Assembly (NCBI GenBank): GCA_004284765.1
Contig: NQJD01000010.1
Span: 30,275-62,274, forward strand
Source of the DNA: Candidatus Electronema aureum
GTDB lineage: Bacteria > Desulfobacterota > Desulfobulbia > Desulfobulbales > Desulfobulbaceae
Direction: 5' to 3'
Length of the DNA stretch: 32,000 bases
The position numbers were made by a program, and so were the translations under genes. Of the stretch, positions 2,276 to 32,000 are shown piece after piece. Position 1 is the stretch's first letter; every line of letters begins with the position of its first letter. The notes under the pieces are model-generated. The model saw only the letters and a program-made list of their open reading frames with translations, did no database searches and was not told the origin of the DNA.

Positions 2276-2330
2276 TTTCCATCCTCCTATCAAAGAAAAC
2301 GCCGAAGCGCGTGTGGAAAAATCTCCAACG
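2273..2330 (-). repeat. 58-bp leader module, copy B (covers the SD and ATG of the TPR gene)
   Basis: See copy A (47/58 identities). The distal 14-mer cgttcgagcggcgc is also shared, at 678-691 and 2448-2461. Confidence 0.8.
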
Positions 2331-2461
2331 CAGCTCAGAGAAAAACTCCATGCAAGCATGGACGAATTTTCGATGCTACGTTGGAGCCACCCTCCATGCT
2401 GGCATTGAGTTTTGCTCCATGCAAGCATGGACTTTTCCGGCCATGCTCGTTCGAGCGGCGC
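2324..2461. repeat. Array of six contiguous 23-bp units, each a 7-2-7 inverted repeat of type TCCATGC-NN-GCATGGA plus a 7-bp linker
   Basis: Units: 2324 tccaacgcagctcagagaaaaac; 2347 tccatgcaagcatggacgaattt; 2370 tcgatgctacgttggagccaccc; 2393 tccatgctggcattgagttttgc; 2416 tccatgcaagcatggacttttcc; 2439 ggccatgctcgttcgagcggcgc. The 18-mer ctccatgcaagcatggac is identical at 2346-2363 and 2415-2432. Confidence 0.8.
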
Positions 2462-4679: not shown

Positions 4680-4941
4680 TGTAGTTCTCCTTGTACAGTT
4701 TCAATCCACGCCCTCTTCGCGAGGGCGATTATACGTTGAACCGGACGCTACTCTTCGCACGGCCAATTCATCGAGTAATGTACTCGCAGTTCATCAGCAA
4801 TCGTACTTGCTGTTCGTCGTGTATATATAAGCTCTTAGAATAGAGCAACTTGCCACACTAATACATTTGCCGCGTCAGTGCCAGCATAAAAACCGCAAAA
4901 TACCAGCACAGGAAAGCGTCAGTTGAAAGATGATCCGTCAT

Positions 4942-6489: not shown

Positions 6490-6513
6490 TCAGCAGGTGG
6501 CAGCTTATGGATA

Positions 6514-6541
6514 TTGACAATTTACTTTGGAGTTGTAAGAT
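6514..6541 (+). promoter_or_regulatory. Candidate sigma70 promoter for cobT-cobS (TTGACA-16-TAAGAT)
   Basis: A perfect -35 hexamer lies at 6514-6519 and TAAGAT at 6536-6541, about 60 nt upstream of the cobT ATG. Confidence 0.45.
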
Positions 6542-6603
6542 GTTAAATAGTCAACCAAACACAGTTTGAACTCCTTTGACTTTTAATCAACCTCCAAGCA
6601 GCC

Positions 6604-8558: not shown

Positions 8559-8693
8559 CTGCCGAGAAGGGCAAATTCAGACTATAATATATTCACGCGC
8601 TGTCCGTGCGGTAGGGAGAATCCTTGCCCTGCGCCACGAATCGAGTTTAGAACAGTATATTCCGCTGCACATCAAATTTATCGGAGGAACAAC

Positions 8694-9104: not shown

Positions 9105-9227
9105 GCAAGAGAAGCATTCTCTGACACCGCGCTGCCTTTCACCGCCTCATTTCCGCCCGCAGGCAAGAGTCAGCCGAGGGGCTGCGCAGAGTTGCGGACA
9201 GCCCCCTCCGCTCCTTTTCTATTCAGG

Positions 9228-12200
9228 ATGCTGATGCTTATTTCCATGCAACAGAGCGTACCTTTTTACCGAAGACTTCGTTTCAGCATGATCATGACCG
9301 TGCTGCTGCTCGTTACCATGATCAGCGGCACCAGCATTTTGATCAGCTATCATGTGACCGGCAGAAAAATTCAACGGGACATGAATGATGATTTTTTAAG
9401 CACAGAACAGGCGGTGGATACCTTTCTGACGCTTTCTGTCGGTCAGCTCCGCGCGGCTACCGAGGCTGCTGCTGAAGAGTTTGTCATTCGCACCACTGCC
9501 AAACAGCAATTTCTCCTTGCTGATGTCGTGCAAAATTGGGAGCAGAAAAGTGAGATTGATATTCTTTTCTTTTTTGACAGCAAGGAAGGAGTCATCGCTG
9601 TGTCGGATGAAAACCGCTCTGCTGCGCTGGAGCTGGCTGCTCATCCAACCATCATAGAAAAAATAACCCAAGCAGAGTCGTTCAGTTTAACTTTGCTCGC
9701 AGGCCCAGAAACAGGTGAGCTAAAACAGAAAAAATTCTTTTTAATCGCGGGCACACCAATCCAGAACGACATAGACCCGGAGAAAAAGCTCTTCGTCCTC
9801 AGCGGCTATATGTTAGACAGTGATTTTCTCAGTCGGATACCGGTGCACCGTCGCATGGGCATCAGTTTGGTGAGCAATAACACTTTATTGGCCACCAGCC
9901 TTGCTGTTGAAATTTACGGCCAGAATCCACAGAATGATCGGGTAGTTCTATTGCCAGGCGCATTGGACATGACTTACGAAAGCTCTTTTTTCAAAGAAAA
10001 GATGCATATAAAAAGTAAGTACGTCCCTTTGATGAAGAACAGCTCACCTAATTTTCTCATTATCTCTCATCCTGCCAGATTGATTCTGGCAACAGACAAG
10101 GAATTTGGCCAGCATTTTCTTATCCTTTTCTTTGTTGGCCTTTGCTCTTCCTTGATTTCCGTTTTGTTCATTACTGGCTCAGTGCTCAATCCGATCAACG
10201 AACTCCAGCGGTTGGTAAGTAAGATCAGCAAAGGCGATTACAGCGACCGGATTGACACCAGCGTGAATAATGAGTTCACGCCTCTGACTATTGAATTCAA
10301 CAGAATGTTGGATTTGATCAAGAAAAAAGACGACGAGCTGTCCGATCGGGTTGAGGCAAAGACCAAAGAACTGCAACAACAAAATATTTTTATCGACAAT
10401 CTGCTTCGCTCCTCGCAGATCATGGCTATTGCCGCTACGGACATGGATTTTCATGTCACGTACTTTAATCCGGTGGCAGAAAAGCTGTTCGGCTATAGGG
10501 CAGCAGAGGTGATCGGCAAAAAAGTAACGCGCTTCCAAGTCCACATCAAAGATCAAGAAGAGGCCTTCAATCAGCTGATCGTGCAGGCGTTGGAAAAAGG
10601 CTCGCACACGTTTACCATCAGCACTTCAGACATGCTCACCTATGATCTGGCGGATACTGCTGGTCGCGATCTGAAAACCGGCAACCATCAGCGGACCATT
10701 GAAGTCTATCTTTCTCCCATTCGCGCACAGGATGGCGATCAAGCCACCGGCCTGATGCTTATGGCTCAGGACATCAGTAAAGCCAGAGAGATGGACGAAC
10801 GCTTGCACGCGGCACTTGCTGAACTCCAAGTGATCATTGACAACACCATGCTTGGCCTGATTTTGGTGCAAGATGACCGAATTGTCCGAATTAATACCAC
10901 CTTTGAAGGCATGTTCGGCTACAGCTATAATGAAATCAAGGAAACATCTTGGCCCGTGTTCTACACCTCTGTTTTTGCAGGAAGAGAGGCCGAGTGCTGG
11001 GATGGCAGCGGGCGAATGTTTTTCATGTTTCGCAAGGCGGTAGATGGAGAAGAAGCCCAGCCGTTTTGGAGCAAAGTGCGGCGAGTCGCGATTAACGATG
11101 AGCATCAGCCAGACATGCGGCGAGAACTGTTCCTCTTTGAGGATATGAGCAGTCAGAACGAGATGTTTGAGAAAATCCAGCGTCTTAGTCAAGCAGTGGA
11201 GCAGAGTTCCAACTCAGTGGTGATCACTGACACCCAAGGCGTGGTGGAGTATGTCAATCGTACTTTTGTCAAGCTAACCGGCTATCAGGCGACTGAAGTC
11301 ATTGGCAGAAATCTTTCCATGCTTTCGCCTGACCCAGCAGTGTACGAGATTATGTGGGCGGCAGTGCGGGCTGGACAGGAATGGACTGGCGAATTAGTCA
11401 ACCGCAAGAAAAACGGTGATCTCTATGAAGAGAATGTAGTGGTTTCGCCGATCCGCAACGAGCAAAACGAGATCACCCATTTTGTTGCCACCAAAGAAAA
11501 CATTACTGACTTGAAAAAGGCTCGGCAACAGGCAGATGCGGCCAACAAAGCCAAGAGCGAGTTTCTTGCCAAAATGAGTCATGAAATTCGCACGCCGATG
11601 AATTCTATCATCGGCATGACCGAAATTCTCTTGGACAGCAAGCTGCCGCAAGAGCAGCGCGGCTATCTGGAAAACGTCAACAGCTCGGCCTCGGTGCTGC
11701 TTTCGCTGATCAATGATATTCTTGATTTTTCTAAGATCGAAGCCGGGCGGTTGGAGTTAGACAGGCACCCCTTCAGCATCCGCCATCTGGCCGAGGAGAT
11801 CATCGCCACGCTCAAGATACTGGCCGAGCAGAAAGGCATCGAGCTGGGGTTAGAGATCAACGATGACAGCAGCTGTTCACCCTTAGGCGACTCCCTGCGC
11901 ATCCGGCAGGTGCTGCTCAATTTAGTCGGCAACGCGATCAAGTTCACCCGCAGAGGCTATGTAGCATTGGAGATAGATGTTCATGCCGATGGCGAGCATG
12001 TCTGCGCGGCGGATTTCAGGATTGTTGATACCGGCATCGGCATCGCCAAAGAGCAGCAGGAGAAAATTTTCGCCGATTTCACGCAAGCGGATAACTCAAT
12101 CACCCGTGATTACGGCGGCACGGGTCTCGGCTTATCTATCAGCAGCCGTTTGGTGCAGATGATGGGCAGCAAAATTGAGCTGGAAAGTGAGCAGGGAAAA

Positions 12201-13112
12201 GGTAGCACCTTCTCGTTCTCCCTATTGTTAGAGAACGGCGGGGACAAGGCAGCAGCGGATATGCGGCGAGCAGAAGAACATATCAGGCCGGTGGTGAGAA
12301 GATTAGACATTCTCTTGGTTGAAGATAATCCGGCCAATCAGCAACTGGCGGTTATTCTGTTAGTCAAGCAGGGACATCGAGTTACAGTGGCAGGTAGTGG
12401 TGCGGAAGCCTTGGTTTGCTTGAGCAAATACCGTTATGATCTGGTTTTCATGGACATGCAGATGCCGGTGATGGACGGCCTCACCGCCACCCGGCATATC
12501 CGGCAGATTGAGCAAGGGCAACCTGCTGACTTGCCCAAGGATTTGGCTGAAATTGGAGAACGCCTCAAAGATCAATTGGCAGACGGGCATCTGTATATCA
12601 TTGCAGTAACGGCTAATGCCCTCCAAGAAGACCGGCAGCAATGTCTTGATGCAGGCATGGACGAATACCTGAGTAAACCGTATAAAAAAATTTCCATGCT
12701 GAGAGTCTTGCAAACCTTTGATCGGTGCGAATTAGAGCCGCAGGCTCATCAAACCAAAAGCGTACCAGCGCAGGCAAAGGAAGAGACAGCGGCAGTGTCG
12801 CGGGCAGCGGTCAAGCAGCACATTATTAAACAGTTTGAGTTAGAGCAGGATGATGCCGAGGAAGTGTTGGCCGCTTATGCTGATTCCCTCAAGGAAAACC
12901 TCCGTAATTTGCGGCAGTGTCTTGCGGACGAACAAGGAGTGGAAGCCGGACGGCAGGCCCATGCGATTAAGGGAGGACTGCTCAACCTTGGTTTAGAACA
13001 GCTGGCGCAGACGGCTTTGGTTTTAGAAAAAGAATTGCCGAAAAACATCGAAAGCAGGCACCTAAAGATGATCGATCAATTATTCGCGGCACTCGAGGAG
13101 TTCATGGCATGA
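9228..13112 (+). CDS. Hybrid sensor histidine kinase: TM, ~270-aa extracytoplasmic domain, TM, HAMP, 3 PAS, HisKA, HATPase, REC, Hpt
   Basis: H-box MSHEIRTPMN; N-box LVGNAIKFT; G-boxes DTGIGI and GGTGLGLSIS; REC LVFMDMQMPVMDG...SKPY; Hpt HAIKGGLLNLG. PAS example: VVITDTQGVVEYVNRTFVKLTGY. The ORF track starts at a TTG at 9192. I prefer the first ATG at 9228, but the start is uncertain. Confidence 0.9.
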   Translation: MLMLISMQQSVPFYRRLRFSMIMTVLLLVTMISGTSILISYHVTGRKIQRDMNDDFLSTEQAVDTFLTLSVGQLRAATEAAAEEFVIRTTAKQQFLLADVVQNWEQKSEIDILFFFDSKEGVIAVSDENRSAALELAAHPTIIEKITQAESFSLTLLAGPETGELKQKKFFLIAGTPIQNDIDPEKKLFVLSGYMLDSDFLSRIPVHRRMGISLVSNNTLLATSLAVEIYGQNPQNDRVVLLPGALDMTYESSFFKEKMHIKSKYVPLMKNSSPNFLIISHPARLILATDKEFGQHFLILFFVGLCSSLISVLFITGSVLNPINELQRLVSKISKGDYSDRIDTSVNNEFTPLTIEFNRMLDLIKKKDDELSDRVEAKTKELQQQNIFIDNLLRSSQIMAIAATDMDFHVTYFNPVAEKLFGYRAAEVIGKKVTRFQVHIKDQEEAFNQLIVQALEKGSHTFTISTSDMLTYDLADTAGRDLKTGNHQRTIEVYLSPIRAQDGDQATGLMLMAQDISKAREMDERLHAALAELQVIIDNTMLGLILVQDDRIVRINTTFEGMFGYSYNEIKETSWPVFYTSVFAGREAECWDGSGRMFFMFRKAVDGEEAQPFWSKVRRVAINDEHQPDMRRELFLFEDMSSQNEMFEKIQRLSQAVEQSSNSVVITDTQGVVEYVNRTFVKLTGYQATEVIGRNLSMLSPDPAVYEIMWAAVRAGQEWTGELVNRKKNGDLYEENVVVSPIRNEQNEITHFVATKENITDLKKARQQADAANKAKSEFLAKMSHEIRTPMNSIIGMTEILLDSKLPQEQRGYLENVNSSASVLLSLINDILDFSKIEAGRLELDRHPFSIRHLAEEIIATLKILAEQKGIELGLEINDDSSCSPLGDSLRIRQVLLNLVGNAIKFTRRGYVALEIDVHADGEHVCAADFRIVDTGIGIAKEQQEKIFADFTQADNSITRDYGGTGLGLSISSRLVQMMGSKIELESEQGKGSTFSFSLLLENGGDKAAADMRRAEEHIRPVVRRLDILLVEDNPANQQLAVILLVKQGHRVTVAGSGAEALVCLSKYRYDLVFMDMQMPVMDGLTATRHIRQIEQGQPADLPKDLAEIGERLKDQLADGHLYIIAVTANALQEDRQQCLDAGMDEYLSKPYKKISMLRVLQTFDRCELEPQAHQTKSVPAQAKEETAAVSRAAVKQHIIKQFELEQDDAEEVLAAYADSLKENLRNLRQCLADEQGVEAGRQAHAIKGGLLNLGLEQLAQTALVLEKELPKNIESRHLKMIDQLFAALEEFMA

Positions 13113-13615
13113 GGCCGCTAATCGTTACTTTTATTGGCTGGCACAGCTGCGGCAAGACCACCTTAGCCGCCCACGTTGTCCGCCAATTCAAGAAACGCGG
13201 CTATCGGGTGGCAGTGGTCAAATCGACCAAAGACCGTGGCCTTTTTCCTGATCAGGCGGGTACAGATACCGCTATTCACCGACAGGCGGGTGCAGACGCA
13301 GTAGCCTTGGTTACGCCAGACCGAATGCTGATCACAGTAGAAAATCAGGCCAAAGATTTAGCCGCCATTGCCCGCTGTTTTTTTGCCGATATGGATATCG
13401 TCATCGGCGAGGGCTTCAAAGAAGCGGAAGGTGTTCCTAAGATCGAGGTCTTCCGGGGCAGCGGCCCACGCCTACGTGATCAGGTGAGCGGCGTAATTGC
13501 CGTGGCCTCTGACTGTGGCTTGATTGAAGAAAACAGCTTCGGCTTGCACGAGAGCAGCAGGCTTGCCAATTTTATTGAAGAACACTTTTTAAATTTCCCA
13601 AGGAAACCATCATGA
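13109..13615 (+). CDS. mobB: MobB-like P-loop protein (molybdopterin-guanine dinucleotide biosynthesis adapter family)
   Basis: Walker A GWHSCGKTT is present. It is collinear with E. coli MobB blocks (G.RVAVVK.T, G.D....R.AGA, VIGEGFK, PKIEVFR, VIAVASD). The start overlaps the kinase stop (ATGA) and the stop overlaps the next start (ATGA). Confidence 0.8.
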   Translation: MRPLIVTFIGWHSCGKTTLAAHVVRQFKKRGYRVAVVKSTKDRGLFPDQAGTDTAIHRQAGADAVALVTPDRMLITVENQAKDLAAIARCFFADMDIVIGEGFKEAEGVPKIEVFRGSGPRLRDQVSGVIAVASDCGLIEENSFGLHESSRLANFIEEHFLNFPRKPS

Positions 13616-14787
13616 TTCACACTCAATCATTCACCGTTACCCAACCTACCCGTATCCGCTTCGGTGTCGGTGCCGTCAACGAACTCGGCAGCACGGTGAA
13701 GGAGTTCAAGGGCAGCAAGGTACTGCTGGTCATTGATCCCGGTTTAGTCAAGGCGGGCCTGTTGCCTAAGCTCACCGCCTCGCTGGAGCAGGAGCAGCTT
13801 TCTTTTGTTGTTTATGACCAAGTTGACCCAGAACCGGGCTTGAAGCTGGCCGACCAAGCCTATGCCATTGCCAAAGAAGCAGGCTGCGACTGCGTGATCG
13901 GCGCGGGCGGCGGCTCGGCAATGGATGTAGCGAAAGCGGTGTCCATCCTGCTGACTAACGGCGGCAAGGCGGCGGATTACCTCGGCCTGGGCTTGATTAA
14001 AAAAGCGGGTGTGCCAAAAATCATGGTGCCGACTTCGGCAGGCACTGGCGCGGAAGTGACCTTCACTGCTGTCTTCATCAACGAAGAAACCGGCTCCAAA
14101 GGCGGTATGAACGGCGACCCGCTTTACCCGGACGCAGCTATTCTCGACCCAGAGCTGACAATCAGCCTACCGCCAAAAGTCACGGCCTACACTGGCATTG
14201 ACGCGCTTACTCATGCGCTGGAGGCTTACACCTCCACTCAAGCGCACGTGCTTTCCGAAATGTATTCGCTGGAGGCGATCAGTTTGATTGCCGAAAACCT
14301 ACCAGCAGCCTGCGCACATGGCGGCAATATAGAGGCAAGATCAGCCATGCTGATGGGTTCGCTACTTGGCGGCAAAGCACTGGCTATCGCTGGAGTTGGG
14401 CTGGTTCATGCAATGGCCTATCCGCTGGGTGGCATGTTCGGTATTCCGCACGGCTTGGCTAACGCGGTGTTGCTGCCCTATGTGGTGCAGTACAATCTGC
14501 CCGGCAATTTGAAAAAATTTGCAACCTTGGCCGAGGTGCTGGGTCAGAATACCGACGGACTGTCCTTGCGCGAGGCAGCCCAGCTTTGCGTTGATGCACT
14601 TTTTGCCCTCAATGCTGACGTGGGCATTCCGGCCACGCTGGAAGAATTAGATATTCCGGCAGACAAAATTCCAGAAATGGCTAAAATTGCCCTCACTGTG
14701 GCCCGTCCTGTGGCTAATAATCCCCGCAGGCCGACGCTGGATGAGGTCATTGCCCTGTACGAGCAGGCGTGGCGACCTGCTGCCTAA
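13612..14787 (+). CDS. Iron-containing (group III) alcohol dehydrogenase
   Basis: Motifs GAGGGSAMDVAK, DALTHALEAY and VHAMAYPLGG.FGIPHGLANA are present. Substrate is not assignable from sequence. Confidence 0.9.
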   Translation: MIHTQSFTVTQPTRIRFGVGAVNELGSTVKEFKGSKVLLVIDPGLVKAGLLPKLTASLEQEQLSFVVYDQVDPEPGLKLADQAYAIAKEAGCDCVIGAGGGSAMDVAKAVSILLTNGGKAADYLGLGLIKKAGVPKIMVPTSAGTGAEVTFTAVFINEETGSKGGMNGDPLYPDAAILDPELTISLPPKVTAYTGIDALTHALEAYTSTQAHVLSEMYSLEAISLIAENLPAACAHGGNIEARSAMLMGSLLGGKALAIAGVGLVHAMAYPLGGMFGIPHGLANAVLLPYVVQYNLPGNLKKFATLAEVLGQNTDGLSLREAAQLCVDALFALNADVGIPATLEELDIPADKIPEMAKIALTVARPVANNPRRPTLDEVIALYEQAWRPAA

Positions 14788-14820
14788 TTCAGGCCAGCGG
14801 GAAAACTTCAGCCGTGTCGG

Positions 14821-14846
14821 TCCTTTTTCCTTTACAAGAAAAAGGA
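14821..14846 (+). terminator. Hairpin after the ADH gene (9-bp stem TCCTTTTTC/GAAAAAGGA, 8-nt loop), a possible terminator
   Basis: It lies 34 nt after the stop codon. There is no canonical trailing U-tract, so the assignment is weak. Confidence 0.3.
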
Positions 14847-14931
14847 TACGCCTACAATGTACAGTCAGCAGAAACCGTCGCCTTCTTGGGTAGCGGAACG
14901 GTAGCGTTCCTCTGCCGAGACATACGCCAGC

Positions 14932-17900
14932 ATGAAGAAAAACAGCACATTATTCATTCGCTACGCCATGATGGCGGCAGGTCTGGTCGGATTAGTCCTT
15001 CTGGGCGGGATGTTTGTTGTCTATAATCACCGACAGCATCTTACCCAAGATGTTAAGATTTATCGTTACGCCTTGGCGCAAGAGGCTGAGGCTCTTCGCC
15101 AGACTTACAATCAGCTGATCAGCATTTCCAATCTCTTAGTCAAAAATCCGGTGGTGATTAACTCATTAGACCGGCATTTGAACGGACAGGAAGCTACCGA
15201 AATTGCTACAGGTATGGTGGACAGAAATTTGGAGGCCATTGCTGCGATTGAAAACGTTTCCTCGGTCTTCCTCGTTAGCTTAGATGGAGCCTGTCTCTAT
15301 TCCAGCCAAAAAGAGCAGGTAGGGAAAAATTACAGCGAGAGCAATTACGTCCGCAACACGCTCAGAACCGGCAGCGGCCTCTATGCGATGATGAATGTCG
15401 CCTCAGGTCGCACTGGTTTGTATTATGCCCAAGCGATCAAAAACGGCAGTCTGAGAATTGGCGTAGCCGTGTTAGAAATCAGGCCAAGTTTCTTCTATCT
15501 TCATTCGTTTACTACTCCTTTCACCGAAGAAACGCCCCAGTCTTCAGATGTCCGCATCGGCCTGAGTACAGACAGCAACATCTTACTCAACACCACAGAA
15601 GGATCGTTGGTTTCAATCCAACCGCTGCCCGACGATTTTTTGCCAAAGGCTCTGCCTCCGCAGTCTGTGATTCAGTCGTTAGATTTTCCTAACTACAACA
15701 AAGAGGCACTGATCAGCTCTGGCTTCCTTAAACTGAAAAGCAACACCGGCAGCACATATTATTTTTTTCACCAAGCTATTGTTAGCAGAAGCCTTTCTTT
15801 GATCCATATAATCAGCAAGGACTGGTTTCATCGCAACTACCATCCTGCCTCATCTGATTATTCTGGCTACTTGATCATGCTCGGCGGTATGCTTTCGGTC
15901 ATGCTTGGCCTGCTTTGGATGGTCAATCGGCGGCACAGCCAAGTTTTACTGGCTGCTGAGACCCTCAAAAACGAGGCCGAGCAGCGAATTGTAGATAAAG
16001 AAAAATATGAAGCGATCATCAACCGCAATCCGCAGGGTTTTTGGTTGAACGACTTTACCACAGGCATCATTCTGGAGGTCAACCAGAGCCTTTGTCAGCT
16101 GCTGGGTCTTGAGGCCGAAGATATCGTCGGACATTATCCTGATGAGTTCATTATCCGCAGTGAAGAGGAAAATACTAATACCTACACTGAAAGCAGGTAC
16201 CAAGGCGACATCTCATGTGAAGGCAAACTGCGGCTGCGCAGCCAAGTTGCTAATGTGCTGATCAACTCCTCCTGCATCTTAGTGCCTGGTTATGCTGACA
16301 GAATTTGTTTCTCCTTTTTTGCTGATATCTCCGAGCGAAAAAAAGAGCAAGAACAGCTTTTTCTCTTTTCGCAGGCGGTGGAGCAAAGCACCAGTGCTAT
16401 TGTCATCACCGACCAGTACGCCTGCATTGCCTATGTTAATTCAGCTTTCACCGAACTGACCGGCTGGAGTCGAGATGAAATTCATGGCACTGATCCGGCT
16501 CTCTTGACCGCAGGCGAACGAGATACCGCTCTCAGTCAAGAAATTTGGCAAAAAATCACCAATGGCGGGACGTGGAAGGGATTTCTCCTTGGTCGAAAAA
16601 AAGACGGATCAACCTACTGGGAGGGGCAGACCGTCTGTCCATTATATGATGACAAAGGCCGAATCACCTATTATCTTGCCATTAAGAACGACATCACCCA
16701 GCGGCTGGAGCTGGAAAGAAAATTCAAGGCGCAGTTGGCCAAGTTAGAGCTGATGGTCGAACATGCGGCTATCGGTATCGCTCATGTAGTGGAGCATCAG
16801 TTCGCTTGGGCCAGTCGGGCAGCGGTGGAAATGTTTGGTTATACGGACTGGGAAGATATTGCTTCGCTACCCCTTGCCGTGATTTTTGAAAACGAGGAAG
16901 CGCATCAAAACACACTCCGCCTTTCGCAGGAACTTTTTGCTCAAGATCAGATTTTTCATGCCGACCAGCAGATGCGGCGCAGAGACGGTAGTCTGTTCTG
17001 GTGTTCGCTGACCGGTAAAATCATTGATCCTTTGGCCCCAGAACAAGGTGCGGTCTGGTTGACCAAAGACATCAGCCGCCAGAAGGAAGAGGAACGACAA
17101 CTTCAGTTAGCCAAAGAGCGGGCCGAGCAGGCGAATCAGGCAAAAAATGATTTTCTTGCCAACATCAGCCATGAAATTCGCACACCGATGAATGCCATCC
17201 TCGGCATGAGCGACTTGGCACTAAAAAGCAACCTGAACGAAGAACAGCAGAAGTATATCACTACAGTGAACGAAGCAGCGGCTTCGCTTATGGGTCTGCT
17301 GAATGACATTCTTGATTTTTCTAAAATAGAATCGCCCTCATTCCAGCTGGAGCCTGCACCATTTAAATTGGAACGAACGGTGAATGATGCAGTACAAACC
17401 TTCAAATATCCGGCAGAGAAAAAGGGGCTATGCCTGCGCTGGGTTATCGAGCCAGATGTCCCGGCTTTTGTTGAAGGAGATGCATTGCGTTTGCAGCAGA
17501 TTCTTGTTAAGCTGCTCAATAATAGCATAAAATTCAGCGAGCAGGGACGAGTGGTAGTCCGGGTAGCAGTGCAGGAGCGCGATGCGGAGAACATTGTACT
17601 CATGTTCCAAGTCAGTGACAAGGGCATCGGGATTGCCAAAGATAAACAGGAAACCATTTTTGACCTGTTTGTCCAAGTTGATACCAGTCTCCGCCGCGAA
17701 AATTCTGGTACGGGCCTCGGGTTGACCATTTGCCGCAAGCTCTGCGAATTGATGGGTGGCACGATCAGTGTGGAGAGCGAGCTGGGGCAAGGCAGTGTTT
17801 TCACCTTCACCGCGCGGTTAAAAAACATCAGCGGCGAGACAGCGGCAGAGATGGAGGATGTTGTGAATCGCATCGGAACGCTGCGTGTTTTAGTGGTTGA

Positions 17901-18360
17901 TGATAACAAGGCTAATCGTTTTCTCGCCACTACTATGTTACAGCGTGATCGTCACCAAATTGTCGAGGCCAACGACGGGGTAGAGGCTCTTAATATGCTG
18001 CTGCATCACCAGTTCGATTTAGTGTTGATGGATGTGCAGATGCCGATCATGGACGGTTTGGCCGCGACCAAGATCATTCGCGCCTGCGAGCAGGAATCGT
18101 GCTGTCTGTCTGGCTTGGAGATGCCAGAAGAATTCTGCGAGGAATTGCATCGCCGCCTGAAAGGTAGTCATCTGCTGATAGTTGCCTTGACCGCTAATAA
18201 CGTGAAAGAAGACAAGCACCTTTGCTTGGCTGCTGGCATGGATGCTTACAATCTCAAGCCCTTAGCAATCAATGATATTTATCGGACGGTTCAGCAGTTA
18301 TACTGCCACCGAAAAAACGCGCTGTCGTCATCAGTCTGCATGTGCATGGCGGAACAATAA
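14932..18360 (+). CDS. Hybrid sensor histidine kinase: TM, ~280-aa extracytoplasmic domain, TM, PAS domains, HisKA, HATPase, REC (no Hpt)
   Basis: H-box ISHEIRTPMN; N-box LLNNSIKFS; DKGIGI; SGTGLGLTIC; REC LVLMDVQMPIMDG...LKP. It is paralogous to the first kinase through the PAS-HisKA region (SQAVEQS...VITD...YVN..F..LTG). Confidence 0.9.
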   Translation: MKKNSTLFIRYAMMAAGLVGLVLLGGMFVVYNHRQHLTQDVKIYRYALAQEAEALRQTYNQLISISNLLVKNPVVINSLDRHLNGQEATEIATGMVDRNLEAIAAIENVSSVFLVSLDGACLYSSQKEQVGKNYSESNYVRNTLRTGSGLYAMMNVASGRTGLYYAQAIKNGSLRIGVAVLEIRPSFFYLHSFTTPFTEETPQSSDVRIGLSTDSNILLNTTEGSLVSIQPLPDDFLPKALPPQSVIQSLDFPNYNKEALISSGFLKLKSNTGSTYYFFHQAIVSRSLSLIHIISKDWFHRNYHPASSDYSGYLIMLGGMLSVMLGLLWMVNRRHSQVLLAAETLKNEAEQRIVDKEKYEAIINRNPQGFWLNDFTTGIILEVNQSLCQLLGLEAEDIVGHYPDEFIIRSEEENTNTYTESRYQGDISCEGKLRLRSQVANVLINSSCILVPGYADRICFSFFADISERKKEQEQLFLFSQAVEQSTSAIVITDQYACIAYVNSAFTELTGWSRDEIHGTDPALLTAGERDTALSQEIWQKITNGGTWKGFLLGRKKDGSTYWEGQTVCPLYDDKGRITYYLAIKNDITQRLELERKFKAQLAKLELMVEHAAIGIAHVVEHQFAWASRAAVEMFGYTDWEDIASLPLAVIFENEEAHQNTLRLSQELFAQDQIFHADQQMRRRDGSLFWCSLTGKIIDPLAPEQGAVWLTKDISRQKEEERQLQLAKERAEQANQAKNDFLANISHEIRTPMNAILGMSDLALKSNLNEEQQKYITTVNEAAASLMGLLNDILDFSKIESPSFQLEPAPFKLERTVNDAVQTFKYPAEKKGLCLRWVIEPDVPAFVEGDALRLQQILVKLLNNSIKFSEQGRVVVRVAVQERDAENIVLMFQVSDKGIGIAKDKQETIFDLFVQVDTSLRRENSGTGLGLTICRKLCELMGGTISVESELGQGSVFTFTARLKNISGETAAEMEDVVNRIGTLRVLVVDDNKANRFLATTMLQRDRHQIVEANDGVEALNMLLHHQFDLVLMDVQMPIMDGLAATKIIRACEQESCCLSGLEMPEEFCEELHRRLKGSHLLIVALTANNVKEDKHLCLAAGMDAYNLKPLAINDIYRTVQQLYCHRKNALSSSVCMCMAEQ

Positions 18361-18378
18361 CAGACCAAAGGTGCTGCA

Positions 18379-18738
18379 ATGGTGGAAACGAAAGAAAAAA
18401 AGAGCGACAATCTGGTGACAAAAGTTGCCGAACATCTCAAAAATATATACAGTCTCAACCCAGAGCAGGTAGAGCAGATGGTGCAGATTTCGGCCAGCTC
18501 GATCAGCGAGAGTTTAGTCGAGGCCCGGCAGAACGTTGCCGCAGGTGATCTGGTCGCTCTTTCTGGTCAAGGTCACAAGGTTAAAGGGGTACTGCTCGGC
18601 ATCGGCCTCAATGAGGAAGCTGAGATAGCCCGACAAATTGAATTGAACGGTCGAGAGGGCAAAGAGATGGATTATAGTTTGCTGATCGACCAACTGGAAG
18701 CAAGGACGCAGCCTCTGTTGGCTCTCTGTGGAGACTGA
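18379..18738 (+). CDS. Stand-alone Hpt phosphotransfer protein
   Basis: It is 119 aa and carries GHKVKGVLLGIGL (the Hpt H-K-x-K-G motif). It sits 18 nt after the Hpt-less hybrid kinase. Confidence 0.75.
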   Translation: MVETKEKKSDNLVTKVAEHLKNIYSLNPEQVEQMVQISASSISESLVEARQNVAAGDLVALSGQGHKVKGVLLGIGLNEEAEIARQIELNGREGKEMDYSLLIDQLEARTQPLLALCGD

Positions 18739-18744
18739 AATCAG

Positions 18745-19902
18745 ATGAAATTGATTTTTTGCGAGGAGTGCGGCGGGCGGAATAACGTCAAGGACGAGCT
18801 GTTAGAGAATATCGACAGCCAGCCGATTGTCTGCCAGTTCTGCGGTAATGTGATGTCCAAAGAGACGATCATACCGCATAAGTTTCCGGCAAAAACGATC
18901 AATACCCTGCATTATCATTTACTCTTTATTGATGATGACGTATTTCATCTCCAGTTGATGAAGAAAACGCTGGAAAAAGAGTACATGGTTTCCATCGCCT
19001 CTACTGGCATCCACGGTCTTGATTTGGCGGCGGAGCGGCAGCCTGATTTGATTTTACTCGACTTGAACATGCCGGGCATGGACGGTTATGAGGTTTGCAA
19101 ACGACTCAAGGAAAATCCAGCCACTCGTAAAATTGCAGTCATTTTTGTCAGCGCACGCGACCGCGAGGACGATGAGTGCCGTGGCTTCGGCCTCGGCGCG
19201 GTGGATTACATCAGCAAGCCGATCAACCTCCAGATTCTCAATGCCCGAATTATGGTGCAGCTCCGCATTCGGCAGCTGCTCCAGCAGCAGAAACAGCAGG
19301 CGGACAGCATGATTCAGTCTCTCCAGCAAAATAGCATGGAAGTTGAGACTGAGCAGGAGCGACTCAAGCGAGAGAACACCGGTCTGATGGCCATTCTTGA
19401 CAGCTTGCCAGAAAAAGTGCTGATTGAGGACAAAGGGCGACGGATATCTTGGGCCAACCGACTCGCGTTGGAAATGTGCGGAATACAGCTCAACGAGATA
19501 GCTGGCCGAAGTAGCGCGGAAATCCTCAGTCGCAGCCATGCAGCCTGTGACGAATGTCTGCCCGACGCGGCTCCGCAGCTGCCCCGCTTTGTTCATCTGC
19601 CGCTGTTTGACGAAGACGGCGAACCAGAAGGCACGGCCCATATTCTGTCTGAAGACAGAGAGCATCCGGCCCAACTGTGCCAAGCAGCGGAATCAGCCAT
19701 CAACAGCTTTATCGACACGAACCGGCAGGCAATCCGAGAAAGCCTTGCCACTATCCTGTTCGGCATCGACGCTATCGGCAGTATACTGAGAAACAATAAA
19801 GAATTTGAGACAATAGGCCGTCCTGTGATCAAAGCAGCAGAGCAATTAGACCAAATGGTTTGCTCGTTGCTGGATTTTGAACGGCGGGACAAGGACGACT
19901 AA
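18745..19902 (+). CDS. Response regulator: N-terminal CxxC...CxxC zinc ribbon, REC, Q-rich coiled coil, PAS-like region, and a degenerate DHp-like C-terminus
   Basis: Zinc ribbon: FCEECGG...VCQFCGN. REC: LLFIDDD...LILLDLNMPGMDG...SKP. The C-terminus FIDTNRQAIRESLATILFGIDAI...AAEQLDQMVCSLLDFER resembles a HisKA helix pair with Q328 where the phospho-His normally sits. No ATPase domain follows. Confidence 0.8.
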   Translation: MKLIFCEECGGRNNVKDELLENIDSQPIVCQFCGNVMSKETIIPHKFPAKTINTLHYHLLFIDDDVFHLQLMKKTLEKEYMVSIASTGIHGLDLAAERQPDLILLDLNMPGMDGYEVCKRLKENPATRKIAVIFVSARDREDDECRGFGLGAVDYISKPINLQILNARIMVQLRIRQLLQQQKQQADSMIQSLQQNSMEVETEQERLKRENTGLMAILDSLPEKVLIEDKGRRISWANRLALEMCGIQLNEIAGRSSAEILSRSHAACDECLPDAAPQLPRFVHLPLFDEDGEPEGTAHILSEDREHPAQLCQAAESAINSFIDTNRQAIRESLATILFGIDAIGSILRNNKEFETIGRPVIKAAEQLDQMVCSLLDFERRDKDD

Positions 19903-19942
19903 TCCGCTCCCTTTTGACCAACTCCTTTCAGCCGCATGAAAC

Positions 19943-20635
19943 ATGAAAAATGTGCTTATAGTGGATGATGATCTGGGCTTTCAGCGTTTGCTGGGGATCA
20001 GTCTCAAAAAATACAAACAGGATTTTGAAATCATTCTTTCCAACAACGGCGAGGAGGCCATTGGTGTACTGAATCGCAAGCCGGTTGATCTGATTATTAC
20101 CGATCTCCAGATGCCGAAAATTGATGGGCTGACGTTGCTCGCCTACATCAATGACGCATTTCCAAAAACGCCTTGTGTGATCATGACTGCTCACTCCACG
20201 CCGGATATCGAGAAGCAGTTCGGGCAAACTGGTCAGTTATTGCTGAAAAAACCCTTCACCATCAACAAATTGGTGGAAGCGATTCAGAATGCGTTGGCCA
20301 AGCCGAAATCAGCGGACGGGATGCTGAAAGGTATTTCTGTGGCTAATTTTCTCCAGATGATTGCCTTAGAACAGAAGACCTGTCTGCTCGAAATCACGGC
20401 ACCTGATCAGGAAAAAGGCTTTTTCTACATTGAAAACGGCGAAGTCTATGATGCAGCTTTTCAAGGACTGACTGGCGAAGAGGCCGCCTACGTCCTGATT
20501 GCCGTGGAAGGCGCGAGCATTCGTTTTACCGACATCCCGGCCAATAAGAAAATGAAAAAACGCATTCAAGCAAGTCTGATGGCCCTGATCATGGAGGCCA
20601 TGACCCGCAAGGATGAAACGATTGGTAACTCCTGA
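19943..20635 (+). CDS. Response regulator, REC plus DUF4388 (PATAN-type) domain
   Basis: REC: VLIVDDD...LIITDLQMPKIDG...LKKP. DUF4388-like: GMLKGISVANFLQMIALEQKTCLLEI...GFFYIENGEVYDAAF. Confidence 0.85.
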   Translation: MKNVLIVDDDLGFQRLLGISLKKYKQDFEIILSNNGEEAIGVLNRKPVDLIITDLQMPKIDGLTLLAYINDAFPKTPCVIMTAHSTPDIEKQFGQTGQLLLKKPFTINKLVEAIQNALAKPKSADGMLKGISVANFLQMIALEQKTCLLEITAPDQEKGFFYIENGEVYDAAFQGLTGEEAAYVLIAVEGASIRFTDIPANKKMKKRIQASLMALIMEAMTRKDETIGNS

Positions 20636-22361
20636 ACCGGCGGCGGTGCCCGACCGCAGTGTTGACGAAACTCCCTCCTATATCTTGATCGTTGATGACC
20701 GGCACAGCGATCTCCGCCTGTTAGAGGCCATACTCAAAGGTCATGGCTACCGTTCGTTGTCCCTCACCAACCCCACCAAGGTGTTGAAGCAGTGCCACAG
20801 CGAGCCGCCAGAAATCATTCTGTTGGATATCAGTATGCCGGAGTTAGACGGCTTTCAGGTCTGCGCCCAGCTCAAGGCTGATCCGCAGTTAGCGGATATT
20901 CCGGTGCTGTTTCTCACTGCCATGCGCGATGTGGCCAACCGGATACGCGGTTTTAAAGCAGGTGGTTCGGATTTTTTGATTAAGCCCTACGAGCCGTCAG
21001 AGCTGATTGCTCGGGTTTCTACACATATCAAGCTGCGCAAGATTCAGCTTGAATTAGCCGGGCGTAATCAAGAACTCAAAGAGAAAATCAGCGATTTAGA
21101 ACGTACTCACGCGGCCTTGCTCAAGAGTGAAGCTCGCACCGAGGCAGTGTTGAACAACGCGGGCGTGTGCATCGGCGTGTTAGATGTCGGCTGCACGTAC
21201 CAGAAAGTCAACGGCATGTATGCACAGATTTTTGGCTACACGCCAGAAGAGTTCCGTTCCATGCGGCTCTGGGATATTCTCCACCCAGATTTTGCCGACC
21301 AAGCTCAAGAGACGGTTGCCCGGCTCCGTGGCGGCGAGTTAGAACAGCATTATGCGGACAAAGTTTTTGTTCGCAAGGATGGAACTCAGTTTCCCGGCGG
21401 CCATTGGCTCAGTCCGCAGCGGGACAGTGATGGCAGGTGCAGCGGCTTTGTTTGCGTGATCAGTGATTTAACAAAGCAGAAAGAGGCGGAATACAAGCTG
21501 CGACTCGCGCATACCGTTTTTGAAACCAGCTCCGAAGGAATGTTGGTCACAGATGCGAACAATTGCATTATCATGGTCAATCCGGCCTTCACTGCTATCA
21601 CCGGCTACCGGAGCGAAGAGGTTATCGGGCGACAGCCCTCGTTCCAACATTCTGAACGTCATGATCAAGAATTCTACCACCAAATGTGGGATGAGCTACT
21701 GGTCAACGGTCGGTGGCAGGGAGAGATCTGGAATTGCCGTCAGAACGGGGATATCTATCCTCTCTGGCTGTCCATCGCCCTGATCCGCAATCAGGAAGGC
21801 AGCATAGTTAATCATGTGGCTCTGTTCTGCGACATCAGCGAGCGAAAAAAGGCTGAGGAAATCCTCCGTTATCAGGCCATGCACGATCCGCTGACCAAGC
21901 TGCCTAATCGGGCCATGTTTGATGAGCGGCTGCGCGGTGCGTTGTCGCGTGCCAAGCGGAAGAAGAAGTTAGTTGCCCTGCTTTATTTAGATTTGGACAA
22001 TTTCAAGACTGTCAACGATACCCTTGGCCATTTGGCTGGAGACCGCTTCCTGCAATTGGTCGCAGAAACCATGCAATCCTGTTTGCGGGCTGAAGACATG
22101 GCAGCGCGGCTCGGTGGTGATGAATTCTGCGCTATTTTGGAGGATGTCAGCTCAATCAGCCAAGCAACGGGCATTGCCGAACGCATCATCACCGAACTCG
22201 GTAGCCTTGATTGCTTTCCTGACGGCTGCGGTCTGCGTACCAGTATTGGCATTGCCGTTTATCCCAACCACGGCATCGACGCGGAGAGTCTGCTTCGCTG
22301 TGCTGACCACGCCATGTACACAGCCAAACGACTCGGTAAAGGCCGCTGTCAGATGGCATAG
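20613..22361 (+). CDS. Response regulator / diguanylate cyclase: REC, coiled coil, 2 PAS, GGDEF
   Basis: REC: ILIVDDR...IILLDISMPELDG...IKP. The catalytic domain has an intact RLGGDEF with an RAED (RxxD I-site) 5 residues upstream. It overlaps the previous gene by 23 nt. Confidence 0.9.
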   Translation: MKRLVTPEPAAVPDRSVDETPSYILIVDDRHSDLRLLEAILKGHGYRSLSLTNPTKVLKQCHSEPPEIILLDISMPELDGFQVCAQLKADPQLADIPVLFLTAMRDVANRIRGFKAGGSDFLIKPYEPSELIARVSTHIKLRKIQLELAGRNQELKEKISDLERTHAALLKSEARTEAVLNNAGVCIGVLDVGCTYQKVNGMYAQIFGYTPEEFRSMRLWDILHPDFADQAQETVARLRGGELEQHYADKVFVRKDGTQFPGGHWLSPQRDSDGRCSGFVCVISDLTKQKEAEYKLRLAHTVFETSSEGMLVTDANNCIIMVNPAFTAITGYRSEEVIGRQPSFQHSERHDQEFYHQMWDELLVNGRWQGEIWNCRQNGDIYPLWLSIALIRNQEGSIVNHVALFCDISERKKAEEILRYQAMHDPLTKLPNRAMFDERLRGALSRAKRKKKLVALLYLDLDNFKTVNDTLGHLAGDRFLQLVAETMQSCLRAEDMAARLGGDEFCAILEDVSSISQATGIAERIITELGSLDCFPDGCGLRTSIGIAVYPNHGIDAESLLRCADHAMYTAKRLGKGRCQMA

Positions 22362-30614: not shown

Positions 30615-31388
30615 TCAAGCCTCGGCCAGCGAGCGGATAAACGGCCCAACTGCCGCTGCACCCTCGCGATCAACCAGCTTTATCGTGGCTGTACCGATCA
30701 CCGCCATATCCGCTCGACCGTGTAACAAGGCCACGTCCTCGCGATTAGCTATGCCAAAGCCCACTGCTAAAGGCAAATCCGTAGCCTTCCGACATCGGCC
30801 AAAGTATTCGACAAGTGAATCGTCCATTTCAGTATGCTGACCAGTCACGCCTTTACGGGCCACGCAGTAAATGAAACCGCTGCCCTGCCTTGCGATCTCA
30901 GTCATTCGCTCGTCCGTGGAAGTCGGGGTGAAAAACATGATCGCCGCCAAGCCGTGTTCTTTGGCCAACTGGAGATATTCGTTACCCTCTTCCGGCGGTA
31001 GGTCAGGAATAATGAAGCCCTTCATGCCAATTTCCGCTGCTCGCTGGATAAAATCCGCCAGCCCGTAACGAAAGACAATGTTGTAATAGGTCATGAAAAG
31101 AAAGTTGACTTGAGGAAATTCACGAGCCATTTCAGCGGCAAAGGCGATGCAATCGCGTACCTTGATGCCCGCTGCTAATGCCTCCTGATTGGCTTTGAGA
31201 ATCACCGGCCCATCGGCCATCGGTTCGGAAAAGGGTATTTGGAGTTCGATGCAATCCACCCCATTTTCCGCCATCTGCCGGATCACCTCCCGGTTGACAG
31301 CCAAAGAAGGATAGCCCAGCACTAAATGAGTCATCAACAGTAAGGGCTTCTGCGTCAGCCGCTGCTGCAAATTCTGCTGCAAATTCAT
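30615..31388 (-). CDS. trpA: Tryptophan synthase alpha chain
   Basis: IELQIPFSEPMADGPVI is present, along with later GFIYCVARKGVTG and overall TrpA collinearity. No trpB lies upstream within the window. Confidence 0.9.
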   Translation of the reverse strand: MNLQQNLQQRLTQKPLLLMTHLVLGYPSLAVNREVIRQMAENGVDCIELQIPFSEPMADGPVILKANQEALAAGIKVRDCIAFAAEMAREFPQVNFLFMTYYNIVFRYGLADFIQRAAEIGMKGFIIPDLPPEEGNEYLQLAKEHGLAAIMFFTPTSTDERMTEIARQGSGFIYCVARKGVTGQHTEMDDSLVEYFGRCRKATDLPLAVGFGIANREDVALLHGRADMAVIGTATIKLVDREGAAAVGPFIRSLAEA

Positions 31389-31542
31389 GATAACCTGTTG
31401 TTCTGTTTGAAACGACGGGCCGAAGAAATACGTTCTCGGCGAGCTGCTATTGTAACCGCAGGGTGAAAAAAAAGGTATCTTTGATTTGCACAGGCGGGCT
31501 ATTTTCCAGATGGCACAACTTTTTTGAACTATCCACTATTAG

Positions 31543-31653
31543 ACCTCTTGCATAAGCCGCAACTTGAGTAGGGGGGCGAAAAATTTTTTGCCCCCCTACA
31601 TCACACATATGCTTGGTGCAGCCGCTGTGCGCAGGGGTTGTTATGCAAGAGGT
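31543..31653. repeat. 111-bp unit bounded by perfect 13-bp inverted repeats and containing a 32-nt near-perfect palindrome
   Basis: acctcttgcataa (31543-31555) is the reverse complement of ttatgcaagaggt (31641-31653). CAAC/GTTG extends the stem after a 4-nt bulge. The inner palindrome is gtaggggggcgaaaaa/ttttttgcccccctac (31568-31599). Confidence 0.7.
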
Positions 31654-31736
31654 TTATTTGGTCACGCCGATTTTGAACCCACGCACGATGGATCCGATGG
31701 TCTTTGATTGCCGTGCAGGGGCCGCCCTTGCTTGCT

Positions 31737-31874
31737 GTACTGTACATGAACCAAAAAGTTTCATGTACATGGATCGAAGCGTTCCATGTACATATACCCG
31801 ACTCGTCCATGTACTTAGGCGAGGTTCATCTATGTGCTTAGGTGAGACCCATCTATGTACATAGTTCTGATTCT
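31737..31874. repeat. Array of six contiguous 23-bp units with core TCCATGTACATGGA (iteron-like)
   Basis: Units: 31737 gtactgtacatgaaccaaaaagt; 31760 ttcatgtacatggatcgaagcgt; 31783 tccatgtacatatacccgactcg; 31806 tccatgtacttaggcgaggttca; 31829 tctatgtgcttaggtgagaccca; 31852 tctatgtacatagttctgattct. Units 4 and 5 are 17/23 identical. Confidence 0.8.
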
Positions 31875-32000
31875 ACCTAATGTGCAACTCTTTTAAACTT
31901 GATTAGGCAGCAATCAAGCCATCCAAGTCAAGTGGAGGGCGGTTATAGACCAAATTAAGGAAGACACAAACAGTGTGCGCCAAAATTTTACGAATCAGAC

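Follow-up and report, generated by a model that had tools for sequence, protein, structure and literature searches.

An IS982-family insertion divides a tandem array of 23-bp palindromic units upstream of trpA in Candidatus Electronema aureum

The array and its surroundings

The window, i.e., the whole stretch of 32,000 nucleotides analyzed here, carries ordinary chromosomal genes (leuA, prmC, cobT/cobS, mobB, and trpA), together with a big cluster of PAS histidine kinases and response regulators. The product of trpA (30615-31388, minus strand) is also encoded on OW818638.1, the 2.94-Mb chromosome of GCA_942492785.1, which is the assembly of Candidatus Electronema aureum GS, a freshwater cable bacterium (PMC11976967). 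The sequence past the window edge was read as L001, which covers, in reverse complement, the window end and the 9.4 kb that follow position 32000; an L001 position equals 41389 minus the window position, and window coordinates above 32000 are called extended. The features found at this end of the window are the following:

30615..31388 (minus strand): trpA, the nearest intact gene, with the array about 350 bp upstream of its start codon
31540..31656 (no strand): nested palindromic element between trpA and the array, with 16-nt outer arms at 31540-31555 and 31641-31656
31568-31599 (no strand): inner hairpin GTAGGGGGGCGAAAAA/TTTTTTGCCCCCCTAC, 32 bp, whose REP-like GTAG/CTAC ends are part of the stem
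31736..31740 (no strand): extra half-core TGTAC at the outer edge of the array, the degenerate terminal unit A10
31741..31874 (no strand): left part of the array, units U1 to U5 of 23 bp each and U6 of about 20 bp, core (C/T)ATGTACAT(G/A)G
31867..31874 (no strand): left copy of the target-site duplication CTGATTCT, 8 bp, with the right copy at 32890-32897 (extended)
31875..32000 (minus strand): left end of an IS982-family element, not array sequence; the whole IS is 1015 bp long (31875-32889, extended)
31903..32000 (minus strand): 3' end of the IS982-family transposase gene (297 aa; L001 8593-9486; stop codon 31903-31905)

The element that begins at 31875 is a complete IS982-family insertion sequence. 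It is bounded by a perfect 16-bp terminal inverted repeat, ACCTAATGTGCAACTC, which begins with AC and starts at 31875, its inverted copy ending at 32889 (extended). The transposase scores 201 bits against the NCBIfam model NF033520, well over the cut-off of 130, and is also matched by Pfam DDE_Tnp_1_3; the size of about 1 kb, the inverted repeats, and the target duplication agree, moreover, with the norms of the family. Given the perfect inverted repeats and the target duplication, the insertion appears to be recent. It divides the array into six plus four units, and the apparent copy number of six is thus a product of the insertion: the full array counts about 10 units of 23 bp, six inside the window and four past the IS, outside the window. 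Once the IS and one copy of the target-site duplication are removed, the 23-bp register runs on through TGTACATAGTTCTGATTCCCCCA, TGTGCATAGAACTTTTTTCCACA, TGTACATGGATGAAAAAGTTCCA, and TGTACGG... The match in copy number with a sister array near 2.3 kb, six against six in the original prediction, is therefore coincidental, as the units number about 10 here, and four strong plus two weak in the other. Other features cited in that prediction dissolve in the same way. The word tccaagt at 31922, taken to be an in-phase match, lies inside the IS and is shifted by one base from the register; the AT-richer stretch cttttaaacttgatta belongs to the IS terminal inverted repeat; and the possible gene start with AAGGAAG near 31960 falls in the 3' end of the transposase gene, which lies on the opposite strand and has its stop at 31903. 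The practical outcome is a correction: the origin-like and transposon-like features belong to an ordinary IS982-family insertion.

At the far edge of the array, the last unit is followed by a 23-bp flank, CCAAGGCGGAAAAGCAGATAACC (trpA-sense strand), then by the 3' end of an IS110-family transposase gene; this IS110 3' remnant, which abuts the far edge, is a perfect 273-bp inverted duplication. Beyond it lie a 450-aa C-terminal htpG fragment, toxin-antitoxin pairs, IS1, IS701, and a full-length htpG; the toxin-antitoxin island near the array is flanked by the duplicated htpG fragment. According to Pfam and NCBIfam scans, the transposases in the 10 kb past the array belong to IS982, IS110, IS1, and IS701 only, and no TnsA/B/C, MuA/B, rve-type gene, or integrase is present in the window or in the 10 kb beyond. 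No Rep initiator, ParA/ParB/ParR, ParM, TubZ/TubR, or phage replication gene was found within 10 kb on either side of the array. The extension past 32000, where Rep, Par, Tns, or integrase genes were to be looked for, yielded none of them, and the transposases met there are those of IS families.

The upstream neighbor of trpA varies between genomes, and the E. aureum array is not conserved there. In several Electronema and Electrothrix, the gene usually found upstream of trpA is an NTP_transf_5 gene that ends a polysaccharide cluster; it is absent here in E. aureum, which makes the locus a rearrangement junction. Near-identical strains were compared as draft assemblies (L279, whose source name is Desulfobulbus sp. 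F1, and the Logan contig L002). Both assemblies break within the nested palindrome at 31540-31656, and as they end in this hairpin, 180 bp upstream of trpA, no IS-free allele was recovered. Disrupted and placed at a rearrangement junction, the array of E. aureum GS may be non-functional now.

Units, core, and symmetry

The six units of the left part follow one another head-to-tail, with starts at 31741 (U1), 31764 (U2), 31787 (U3), 31810 (U4), 31833 (U5), and 31856 (U6), as had been described. The spaced pattern ATGTRC-N17-ATGTRC has six matches in the window, every one of them in the array at 31741-31874, where shuffled sequences would give 0.02. The 14-mer TCCATGTACATGGA matches four units of the array with at most three mismatches, and the near-perfect 14-bp palindrome reported for one unit is indeed present (ttcatgtacatgga at 31760-31773), as are the two occurrences of TGTAC at 31736 and 31741. 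Within the 41 kb of E. aureum read, YATGTRCAT clusters solely in the two halves of this one array; the inverted copy that would form the other end of a transposon is, thus, not found in these 41 kb. Words resembling DnaA boxes amount to a single 7-of-9 match around 31527, about 210 bp from the array.

A unit consists of a palindromic core of 10-14 bp, with the consensus yCATGTACATrG and often GAAC behind it, and of a spacer of some 11 bp whose sequence varies; on the minus strand, which is the sense strand of trpA, the units read core, GAAC, spacer. In what follows, A units are numbered from the far edge along this strand. To build a profile, we pooled the 10 units of E. aureum with six units from a homologous array of Electronema sp. 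KV described below (n = 16). The information content reaches 1.5-2.0 bits at the eight core positions ATGTACAT and about 1 bit at the flanking y...rGA, against 0.1-0.5 bits at seven positions of the spacer. The spacers repeatedly carry A5/T5 tracts at one fixed position. The GAAC side of the core is better conserved than the opposite side, which gives the array a polarity, and this polarity relative to the conserved flank is identical in E. aureum and KV. A palindromic consensus core conserved against variable spacers is what phased operators would show, and such a contrast is not what a uniformly decaying minisatellite would be predicted to give. Two pairs of internal units, U4/U5 and U6/U7, resemble local duplications.

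One has to ask whether the palindrome acts as DNA or as a folded strand. Unit by unit, the arms do not compensate for each other: 68.0% of the cells are paired in the 16 units versus 68.5% in column shuffles, and the covariation score of the arms is 0.099 versus 0.100 when shuffled. The arms, thus, pair only as the composition of the columns predicts, and the palindrome is a property of the consensus, as a symmetric dimer would select; judging from these 16 units, the absent covariation speaks more for a DNA site bound by a dimer than for a hairpin. The folding of both strands far exceeds that of shuffles (z = -5.4 and -5.0), but the predicted minimum-free-energy pairs join cores from different units and form no unit hairpins, a pairing between units which any repeated self-complementary word would trivially produce. 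No RNA family was detected at the arrays when the window end and eight related loci were scanned with Rfam and for tRNAs.

A homologue in Electronema sp. KV and a class of 21/23-bp arrays

A scan of one genome per species with the pattern CATGTRCAT-N14-CATGTRCAT gave, among the matches listed, one relevant locus, a homologous array of six units on contig L101 of Candidatus Electronema sp. KV. Its units are close to those of E. aureum at the ends (K1 vs. A1, 22/23; K3 vs. A8, 21/23; K4/K5 vs. A9, 19/23), and a 53-bp block made of the 23-bp flank and adjoining units is 98% identical between the two. Overall, the end units and one flank are 91-98% identical between the species, whereas the middle units differ in number and sequence. 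The two loci are non-syntenic and their surrounding genes are unrelated. In KV, a small DUF2442-like ORF and a hairpin whose stem measures 17 bp precede the array, and the two copies of an 11-bp perfect direct repeat, GCCAAGCCTTG, spaced by 194 bp, enclose the hairpin and array. About 50 bp downstream of the end of the array is a predicted promoter, TTGACA-17-GATAAT (11/12 matches), behind which lies a gene for a cytochrome-c-like, secreted protein of 449 aa with a CxxCH motif; apart from this strong KV promoter, sigma-70 and terminator scans around five arrays were uninformative. Orthologues of the cytochrome-like gene in Electronema JM and in a Logan contig have similar promoter-like sequences and lack the array, which is, thus, no conserved part of the control region of this gene. 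The 41 kb of E. aureum and 8 kb of KV that were read contain no second copy of the array, the 22-mer common to both Electronema species has no match in the metagenome collection, and spurious ORFs translated from the arrays have no homologues, the sole match being the query. The homology at the end units, combined with unrelated gene contexts, shows that the array is a conserved module in its own right, bound to no single gene, and possibly mobile. Conservation in a syntenic position is not what we see: the array is not conserved upstream of trpA in relatives, and the KV copy lies elsewhere.

Arrays of the same geometry, with other cores, are found in the window and in other Electronema genomes:

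2322..2459 (no strand): sister array, 23-bp period, four strong and two weak units, core CTCCATGC-N2-GCATGGAG
4767..4830 (no strand): third, small array, 23-bp period, 2-3 units, palindromes CGAGTAATGTACTCG and CAGCAATCGTACTTGCTG, between divergent genes
Electronema sp. V4: array with core GAGCATAnnnnTATGCTC, about nine units, upstream of a Roc-COR-LRR gene
Electronema: array with core TTTCAATnTnAATC, 13 units of 21 bp, upstream of an fn3 gene
Electronema sp. PJ: array with core AAACTCCTTTGC, about 14 units of 21 bp, about 110 bp upstream of trpA; the orientation flips mid-array
Electronema: array with core CACAAACRCCTTAGCGTTTATAA, three units, between convergent genes

The sister array ends 47 bp upstream of the start codon of a TPR-protein gene (2275, minus strand). 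As originally proposed, it shares with the array at 31741 the 23-bp period and the half-site TCCATG; the center between half-sites is, however, 4 bp in the sister array (TCCATGCAAGCATGGA at 2347 and 2416) and 2 bp in the other. One of its units scores as terminator-like, and the array at 4767-4830 looks like hairpins with covarying stems. The window of 32 kb, thus, holds three arrays with a 23-bp period. We then scanned 126 kb of Electronema DNA from about eight genomes, collected around the loci studied, for self-similarity at lags of 10-40: the only lags that pass the threshold are 21 and 23, and no lag passes it in 41.5 kb of Electrothrix communis and a Desulfolithobacter relative. These 126 kb contain about nine arrays of 21/23 bp, i.e., about one per 15 kb sampled, all of them intergenic, and 8/9 sit 50-350 bp upstream of a start codon. 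Each array has its own core, 10-18 bp in length; the period stays constant despite this variation, which suggests a geometric constraint, for example, the spacing of bound proteins. The PJ array occupies the same position upstream of trpA as the E. aureum array, but with a different core and a 21-bp period. An array just after trpA (L280 10788-10920) is made of hairpins with covarying stems and GAAC between them, and as it differs in this respect, the class is possibly mixed.

The E. aureum array belongs to this genus-typical class of 21/23-bp intergenic arrays. The suggestion that the two arrays first noticed stand for a dispersed family, or for related binding proteins, gains support from the non-syntenic KV homologue, from the third array of the window, and from the 21/23-bp arrays found elsewhere. 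In the literature searched, such arrays are not described for cable bacteria; the multicopy sequences known from Geobacter are of another kind, with repeats of 7-8 nt.

What the array could be

The structural side is secure: about 10 units in the array, an IS982-family insertion, an IS110 remnant, a homologue in KV, and no replication, partition, or Tn7- or Mu-type genes. As to its role, the explanation that we put first, and to which we give an even chance, is that the array would be a phased platform for the cooperative binding of a putative sequence-specific dimeric protein, acting on nearby promoters or on DNA architecture. Dimers of such a protein (e.g., of the helix-turn-helix type) would bind side by side, spaced by two helical turns or slightly more, and could thereby form a cooperative nucleoprotein complex, which in turn may regulate or insulate a neighboring promoter or organize the local DNA. 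Several observations speak against it. We found no candidate binding protein, and no DNA-binding gene consistently adjoins the arrays; 23 bp are two helical turns plus 2 bp, so that neighboring sites are not exactly on the same face of the DNA; the E. aureum array tolerates an IS and lies 350 bp from trpA, with the REP-like element in between; and near-identical end units in different gene contexts would also fit mobility.

Mobility is at the heart of another explanation, which we consider unlikely: the array, its short flanks, and the REP-like hairpin would form a non-autonomous mobile or dispersed module (MITE- or REP-cluster-like) copied between intergenic sites, and any binding would serve its own mobility. 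It would account for end units and one flank that are 91-98% identical in the unrelated gene contexts of two species, for the 11-bp direct repeat around the KV hairpin and array, for the position of both loci at synteny breakpoints or beside accessory genes, and for the IS982 and IS110 insertions in or beside the array. However, terminal inverted repeats are absent, the 41 kb of E. aureum and 8 kb of KV hold no further copy, the shared 22-mer is absent from the metagenome collection, the translated array ORFs match nothing but the query, the number of units differs between species, and the 11-bp repeat overlaps a hairpin arm and could be a REP remnant. The resemblance to REP sequences, which are imperfect 20-40-bp palindromes carrying GTAG or CGTC as an unpaired tag (PMC3733652), is partial. 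Like REPs and BIMEs, the units are short palindromes clustered between genes and are IS targets, as REPs frequently are (PMC3733652; PMC2817692), and a REP-like GTAG/CTAC hairpin (31568-31599) sits 140 bp from the array. In contrast, the array units are palindromes of 10-14 bp only, without the unpaired GTAG/CGTC tag and without compensatory changes in their stems, and they are direct with a strict 23-bp period, whereas BIMEs alternate the orientation of their units. An action at the level of RNA or single strands is decidedly unlikely; the array would then be a string of small hairpins (UCCAU-GUAC-AUGGA, some with U-tracts) serving as a terminator or insulator, as an RNA-stability element, or as the target of an RNA-binding protein. 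The folding of both strands well beyond shuffles, the terminator-like unit of the sister array, and the covarying stems of other Electronema arrays (L280; window 4767-4830) are in its favor, but the 16 units of this array family do not covary, the predicted folds pair cores across units, the stems would reach just 4-5 bp, the KV array precedes the promoter predicted for the next gene, and no Rfam family matches. We regard it as very unlikely that the array is a decaying, functionless minisatellite, born from slippage or unequal crossing-over and tolerated at an IS-rich junction. The disruption by an IS, the IS remnants at the border, the locally duplicated look of U4/U5 and U6/U7, and a unit count that varies by species would all be expected of it; the sharp contrast in conservation between core and spacer, the conservation of the end units across species, and periods limited to 21 and 23 bp over many independent arrays with different cores would not.

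Among known systems with a similar geometry, plasmid iterons (RK2 oriV, R6K gamma ori, pPS10) are head-to-tail repeats of about 22-23 bp in 4-10 copies, usually with asymmetric cores, and partition sites such as F sopC (12 x 43 bp, each with a 16-bp palindrome), pSK41, or R1 parC are arrays as well. Either an iteron-type origin with an operator, as originally proposed, or a centromere-like site of an integrated plasmid or phage remnant is nonetheless highly improbable here. The head-to-tail period of 23 bp and the 6-10 copies match arrays of the iteron and sopC/parC types (RK2, R6K, F sopC), and the toxin-antitoxin island flanked by the duplicated htpG fragment is nearby. With iterons, the array shares the period of about 22-23 bp, the copy number, the conserved core with variable spacers, and the presumed cooperative binding of one protein per unit; with partition centromeres, it shares tandem, evenly spaced sites (palindromic in sopC) that would nucleate a higher-order nucleoprotein complex. 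Yet no rep, par, or phage gene lies within 10 kb, and what was taken for an AT-rich region and a gene start is sequence of the IS. Neither an adjacent unwinding element nor a cluster of DnaA boxes accompanies the array, whose core is palindromic and which is chromosomal, beside housekeeping genes. No parAB or parMR operon is found among the neighboring genes, and the period differs from that of partition centromeres. An origin would also be expected in few arrays per replicon, whereas here many arrays with differing cores are present in one genome, and at about one per 15 kb they are too numerous for each to be an origin. A BLAST search of the array against 72,556 plasmids gave no match, nor did one with a Bacteroides element presented below. 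With the cognate genes missing and the arrays too many, the geometry is like that of iterons or sopC, but membership of these families fails. The last explanation, a multi-site end of a Tn7-like or Mu-like transposon, is scarcely credible. In such ends, head-to-tail sites of about 22 bp, each starting with TGT, are closely packed; the array units begin with TGT too, their period of about 22-23 bp is like that of TnsB or MuA sites, and a DDE transposase gene follows the array. This transposase is, however, of the unrelated IS982 family, part of a self-contained IS that has inverted repeats of its own and has left an 8-bp target duplication inside the array; TnsA/TnsB/TnsC, MuA/MuB, and rve-type genes are absent, the inverted partner array is missing from the 41 kb read, and ten direct sites exceed the number in any known transposon end.

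We tentatively suggest that Electronema could have a previously undescribed, lineage-specific system of dozens to hundreds of strict 21/23-bp intergenic arrays with array-specific cores, either attended by filament-forming DNA-binding proteins of a diversified family or made by a new repeat-generating mechanism; these arrays would be mobile between loci as modules and could act in gene regulation or in the chromosome organization of multicellular filaments. To our knowledge, cable bacteria have neither been grown in pure culture nor genetically manipulated yet, hence little is known of their regulatory logic. If the arrays are binding platforms, they would offer a ready-made catalogue of cis-elements, whose core groups could reveal regulons and regulators through comparative genomics and DNA pull-down; if they are mobile modules, they would represent a new kind of small repeat and would help explain the rearranged, IS-rich genomes of Electronema. 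Taken alone, the E. aureum locus is a repeat damaged by an IS and of modest interest; its broader value is as a representative of the genus-wide 21/23-bp arrays.

The pattern scan that led to KV also returned, among the matches listed, in which a dispersed Bacteroides element predominated, dozens of loci in Bacteroides, Prevotellaceae, Olivibacter, and Treponema with 3-10 CATGTACATG units at 23 bp. As the search pattern fixed the spacing, this resemblance across phyla is at least partly a selection bias and allows no functional inference. When the gap was left free at 4-30 bp, exact CATGTACATG pairs showed no 23-bp peak in viral or metagenome contigs, and the idea of a universal binding protein across phyla was rejected on this basis. 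A four-unit ATGTRC pattern had nine matches in viral contigs, all of them ordinary, perfect 23-bp phage tandem repeats unrelated to the array. The Bacteroides loci have the core, the 23-bp period, and the variable spacers of the E. aureum array, but their array lies inside a longer, multi-copy element and always counts four units: the 4 x 23-bp array of CATGTACATG is central in a dispersed element of 330-560 bp, which is present in at least 25 copies in B. nordii.

Arrays in other Electronema genomes and their possible structural constraint

The intergenic arrays found in Electronema DNA, in the window and in loci fetched for comparison (L-numbers), share a narrow range of periods; when we scanned lags of 10-40 over 126 kb of Electronema DNA, none besides 21 and 23 rose above the threshold. 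The arrays are as follows:

L135 5600-5890 (Electronema sp. PJ): period of 21 bp, core AAACTCCTTTGC repeated about 14 times, roughly 110 bp upstream of trpA
L133 11300-11507 (Electronema sp. V4): core GAGCATAnnnnTATGCTC, about nine times, intergenic, upstream of a Roc-COR-LRR gene
L134 1484-1757, L134 10068-10137 and L132 4819-4941: other intergenic arrays, period 23 or 21 bp, each with a core of its own, among them TTTCAATnTnAATC (13 times, 5' of an fn3 gene) and CACAAACRCCTTAGCGTTTATAA (three times, between convergent genes)
Window 4767-4830: third small array of the window, 2-3 units with a 23-bp period, intergenic
L280 10788-10920 (Electronema-like Logan contig): period of about 22 bp, directly 3' of the trpA stop codon

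The PJ array, in which the orientation of the units switches mid-array, shares its position relative to trpA with the E. aureum array, whereas its core is unrelated and its period is different. The small array at 4767-4830 lies between two divergent genes, coding for a CoA-disulfide-reductase-like protein and a PATAN-domain response regulator, and its palindromes (CGAGTA...TACTCG and CAGCAA...TTGCTG) differ in sequence yet stay symmetric, which hints at a structural constraint. The array that follows trpA in L280 consists of small hairpins joined by a conserved (T)GAAC linker; their stem sequences vary while complementarity is kept, including T-G wobble on the sense strand, and this array looks like an element selected for structure, at the RNA or single-strand level.

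23-bp arrays outside cable bacteria

Two kinds of arrays with a 23-bp period were found in other bacteria:

L017 5343-5901 and about 40 other loci among the matches listed (Bacteroides nordii, Bacteroides sp. HRGM_Genome_3638 and others): 330-560-bp element in dispersed copies
L016 6464-6671, L045 2731-2961, L125 7765-7903 and L116 5845-6006: intergenic arrays present in a single copy, 5-10 units with CATGTACATG-type cores

The dispersed Bacteroides element has at its centre an array of four units whose core is (C/G)ATG(T/C)ACAT(G/C), and some copies lie between inverted arms of roughly 200 bp; at least 25 copies belong to B. nordii among the matches listed, and the element has no match in Rfam and none among plasmids. 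The four CATGTACATG-type arrays are hosted by a Prevotellaceae MAG, where the array lies just upstream of gyrB, Bacteroides intestinipullorum, Olivibacter sitiensis and a Treponema MAG.

Palindromes, duplications and probable insertions in the window and beyond it

Several palindromic or repeated segments occur in the window and beyond it, the latter in L001 (the reverse complement of the window end and of the 9.4 kb that follow):

Window 31540-31656: nested palindrome, 16-nt outer arms around a 32-bp hairpin
L001 7727-7999 and 8119-8391: perfect inverted duplication of 273 bp, spacer of 119 bp
L001 133: end of the full-length htpG
L001 6367-7719: second htpG copy, C-terminal 450 aa, same orientation
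Window 2468-2545 and 2949-3026: 78-nt direct repeat, copies 94% identical and 481 bp apart

The inner hairpin of the nested palindrome (arms GTAGGGGGGCGAAAAA/TTTTTTGCCCCCCTAC, ends GTAG/CTAC) looks REP-like; similar GTAGGGG...CCCCTAC hairpins are present in Electronema sp. KV and JM, and two independent draft assemblies end inside this palindrome. The duplicated 273 bp are the 3' end of a transposase gene of the IS110 family; one arm adjoins the flank of the E. aureum array and the other the stop codon of the partial htpG, a pattern that either a genuine palindromic rearrangement or an assembly artefact could explain. Within L001 1-7719, the two htpG copies enclose a roughly 6-kb island, which contains BrnT-like and UPF0175/DUF3368 toxin-antitoxin pairs, IS1 and IS701 elements and genes for two proteins without known domains, a layout that looks like integration through homologous recombination or IS-mediated duplication.

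Near the other end of the window, the 78-nt repeat encloses two genes, one vapB-like and the other a truncated PIN (vapC) gene, and its copy at 2949-3026 is the 3' end of a pyridine-nucleotide-disulfide oxidoreductase/rhodanese gene. Thus a small toxin-antitoxin cassette appears to have entered this site, with the 3' end of the host gene duplicated in the process.

The window also holds an unusually dense signalling gene cluster (4993-22361), whose products include three PATAN-domain (DUF4388) response regulators, two hybrid PAS histidine kinases each longer than 1100 aa, one Hpt protein and one response-regulator/PAS/GGDEF protein; cobalamin, molybdopterin and alcohol dehydrogenase genes are interspersed among them.
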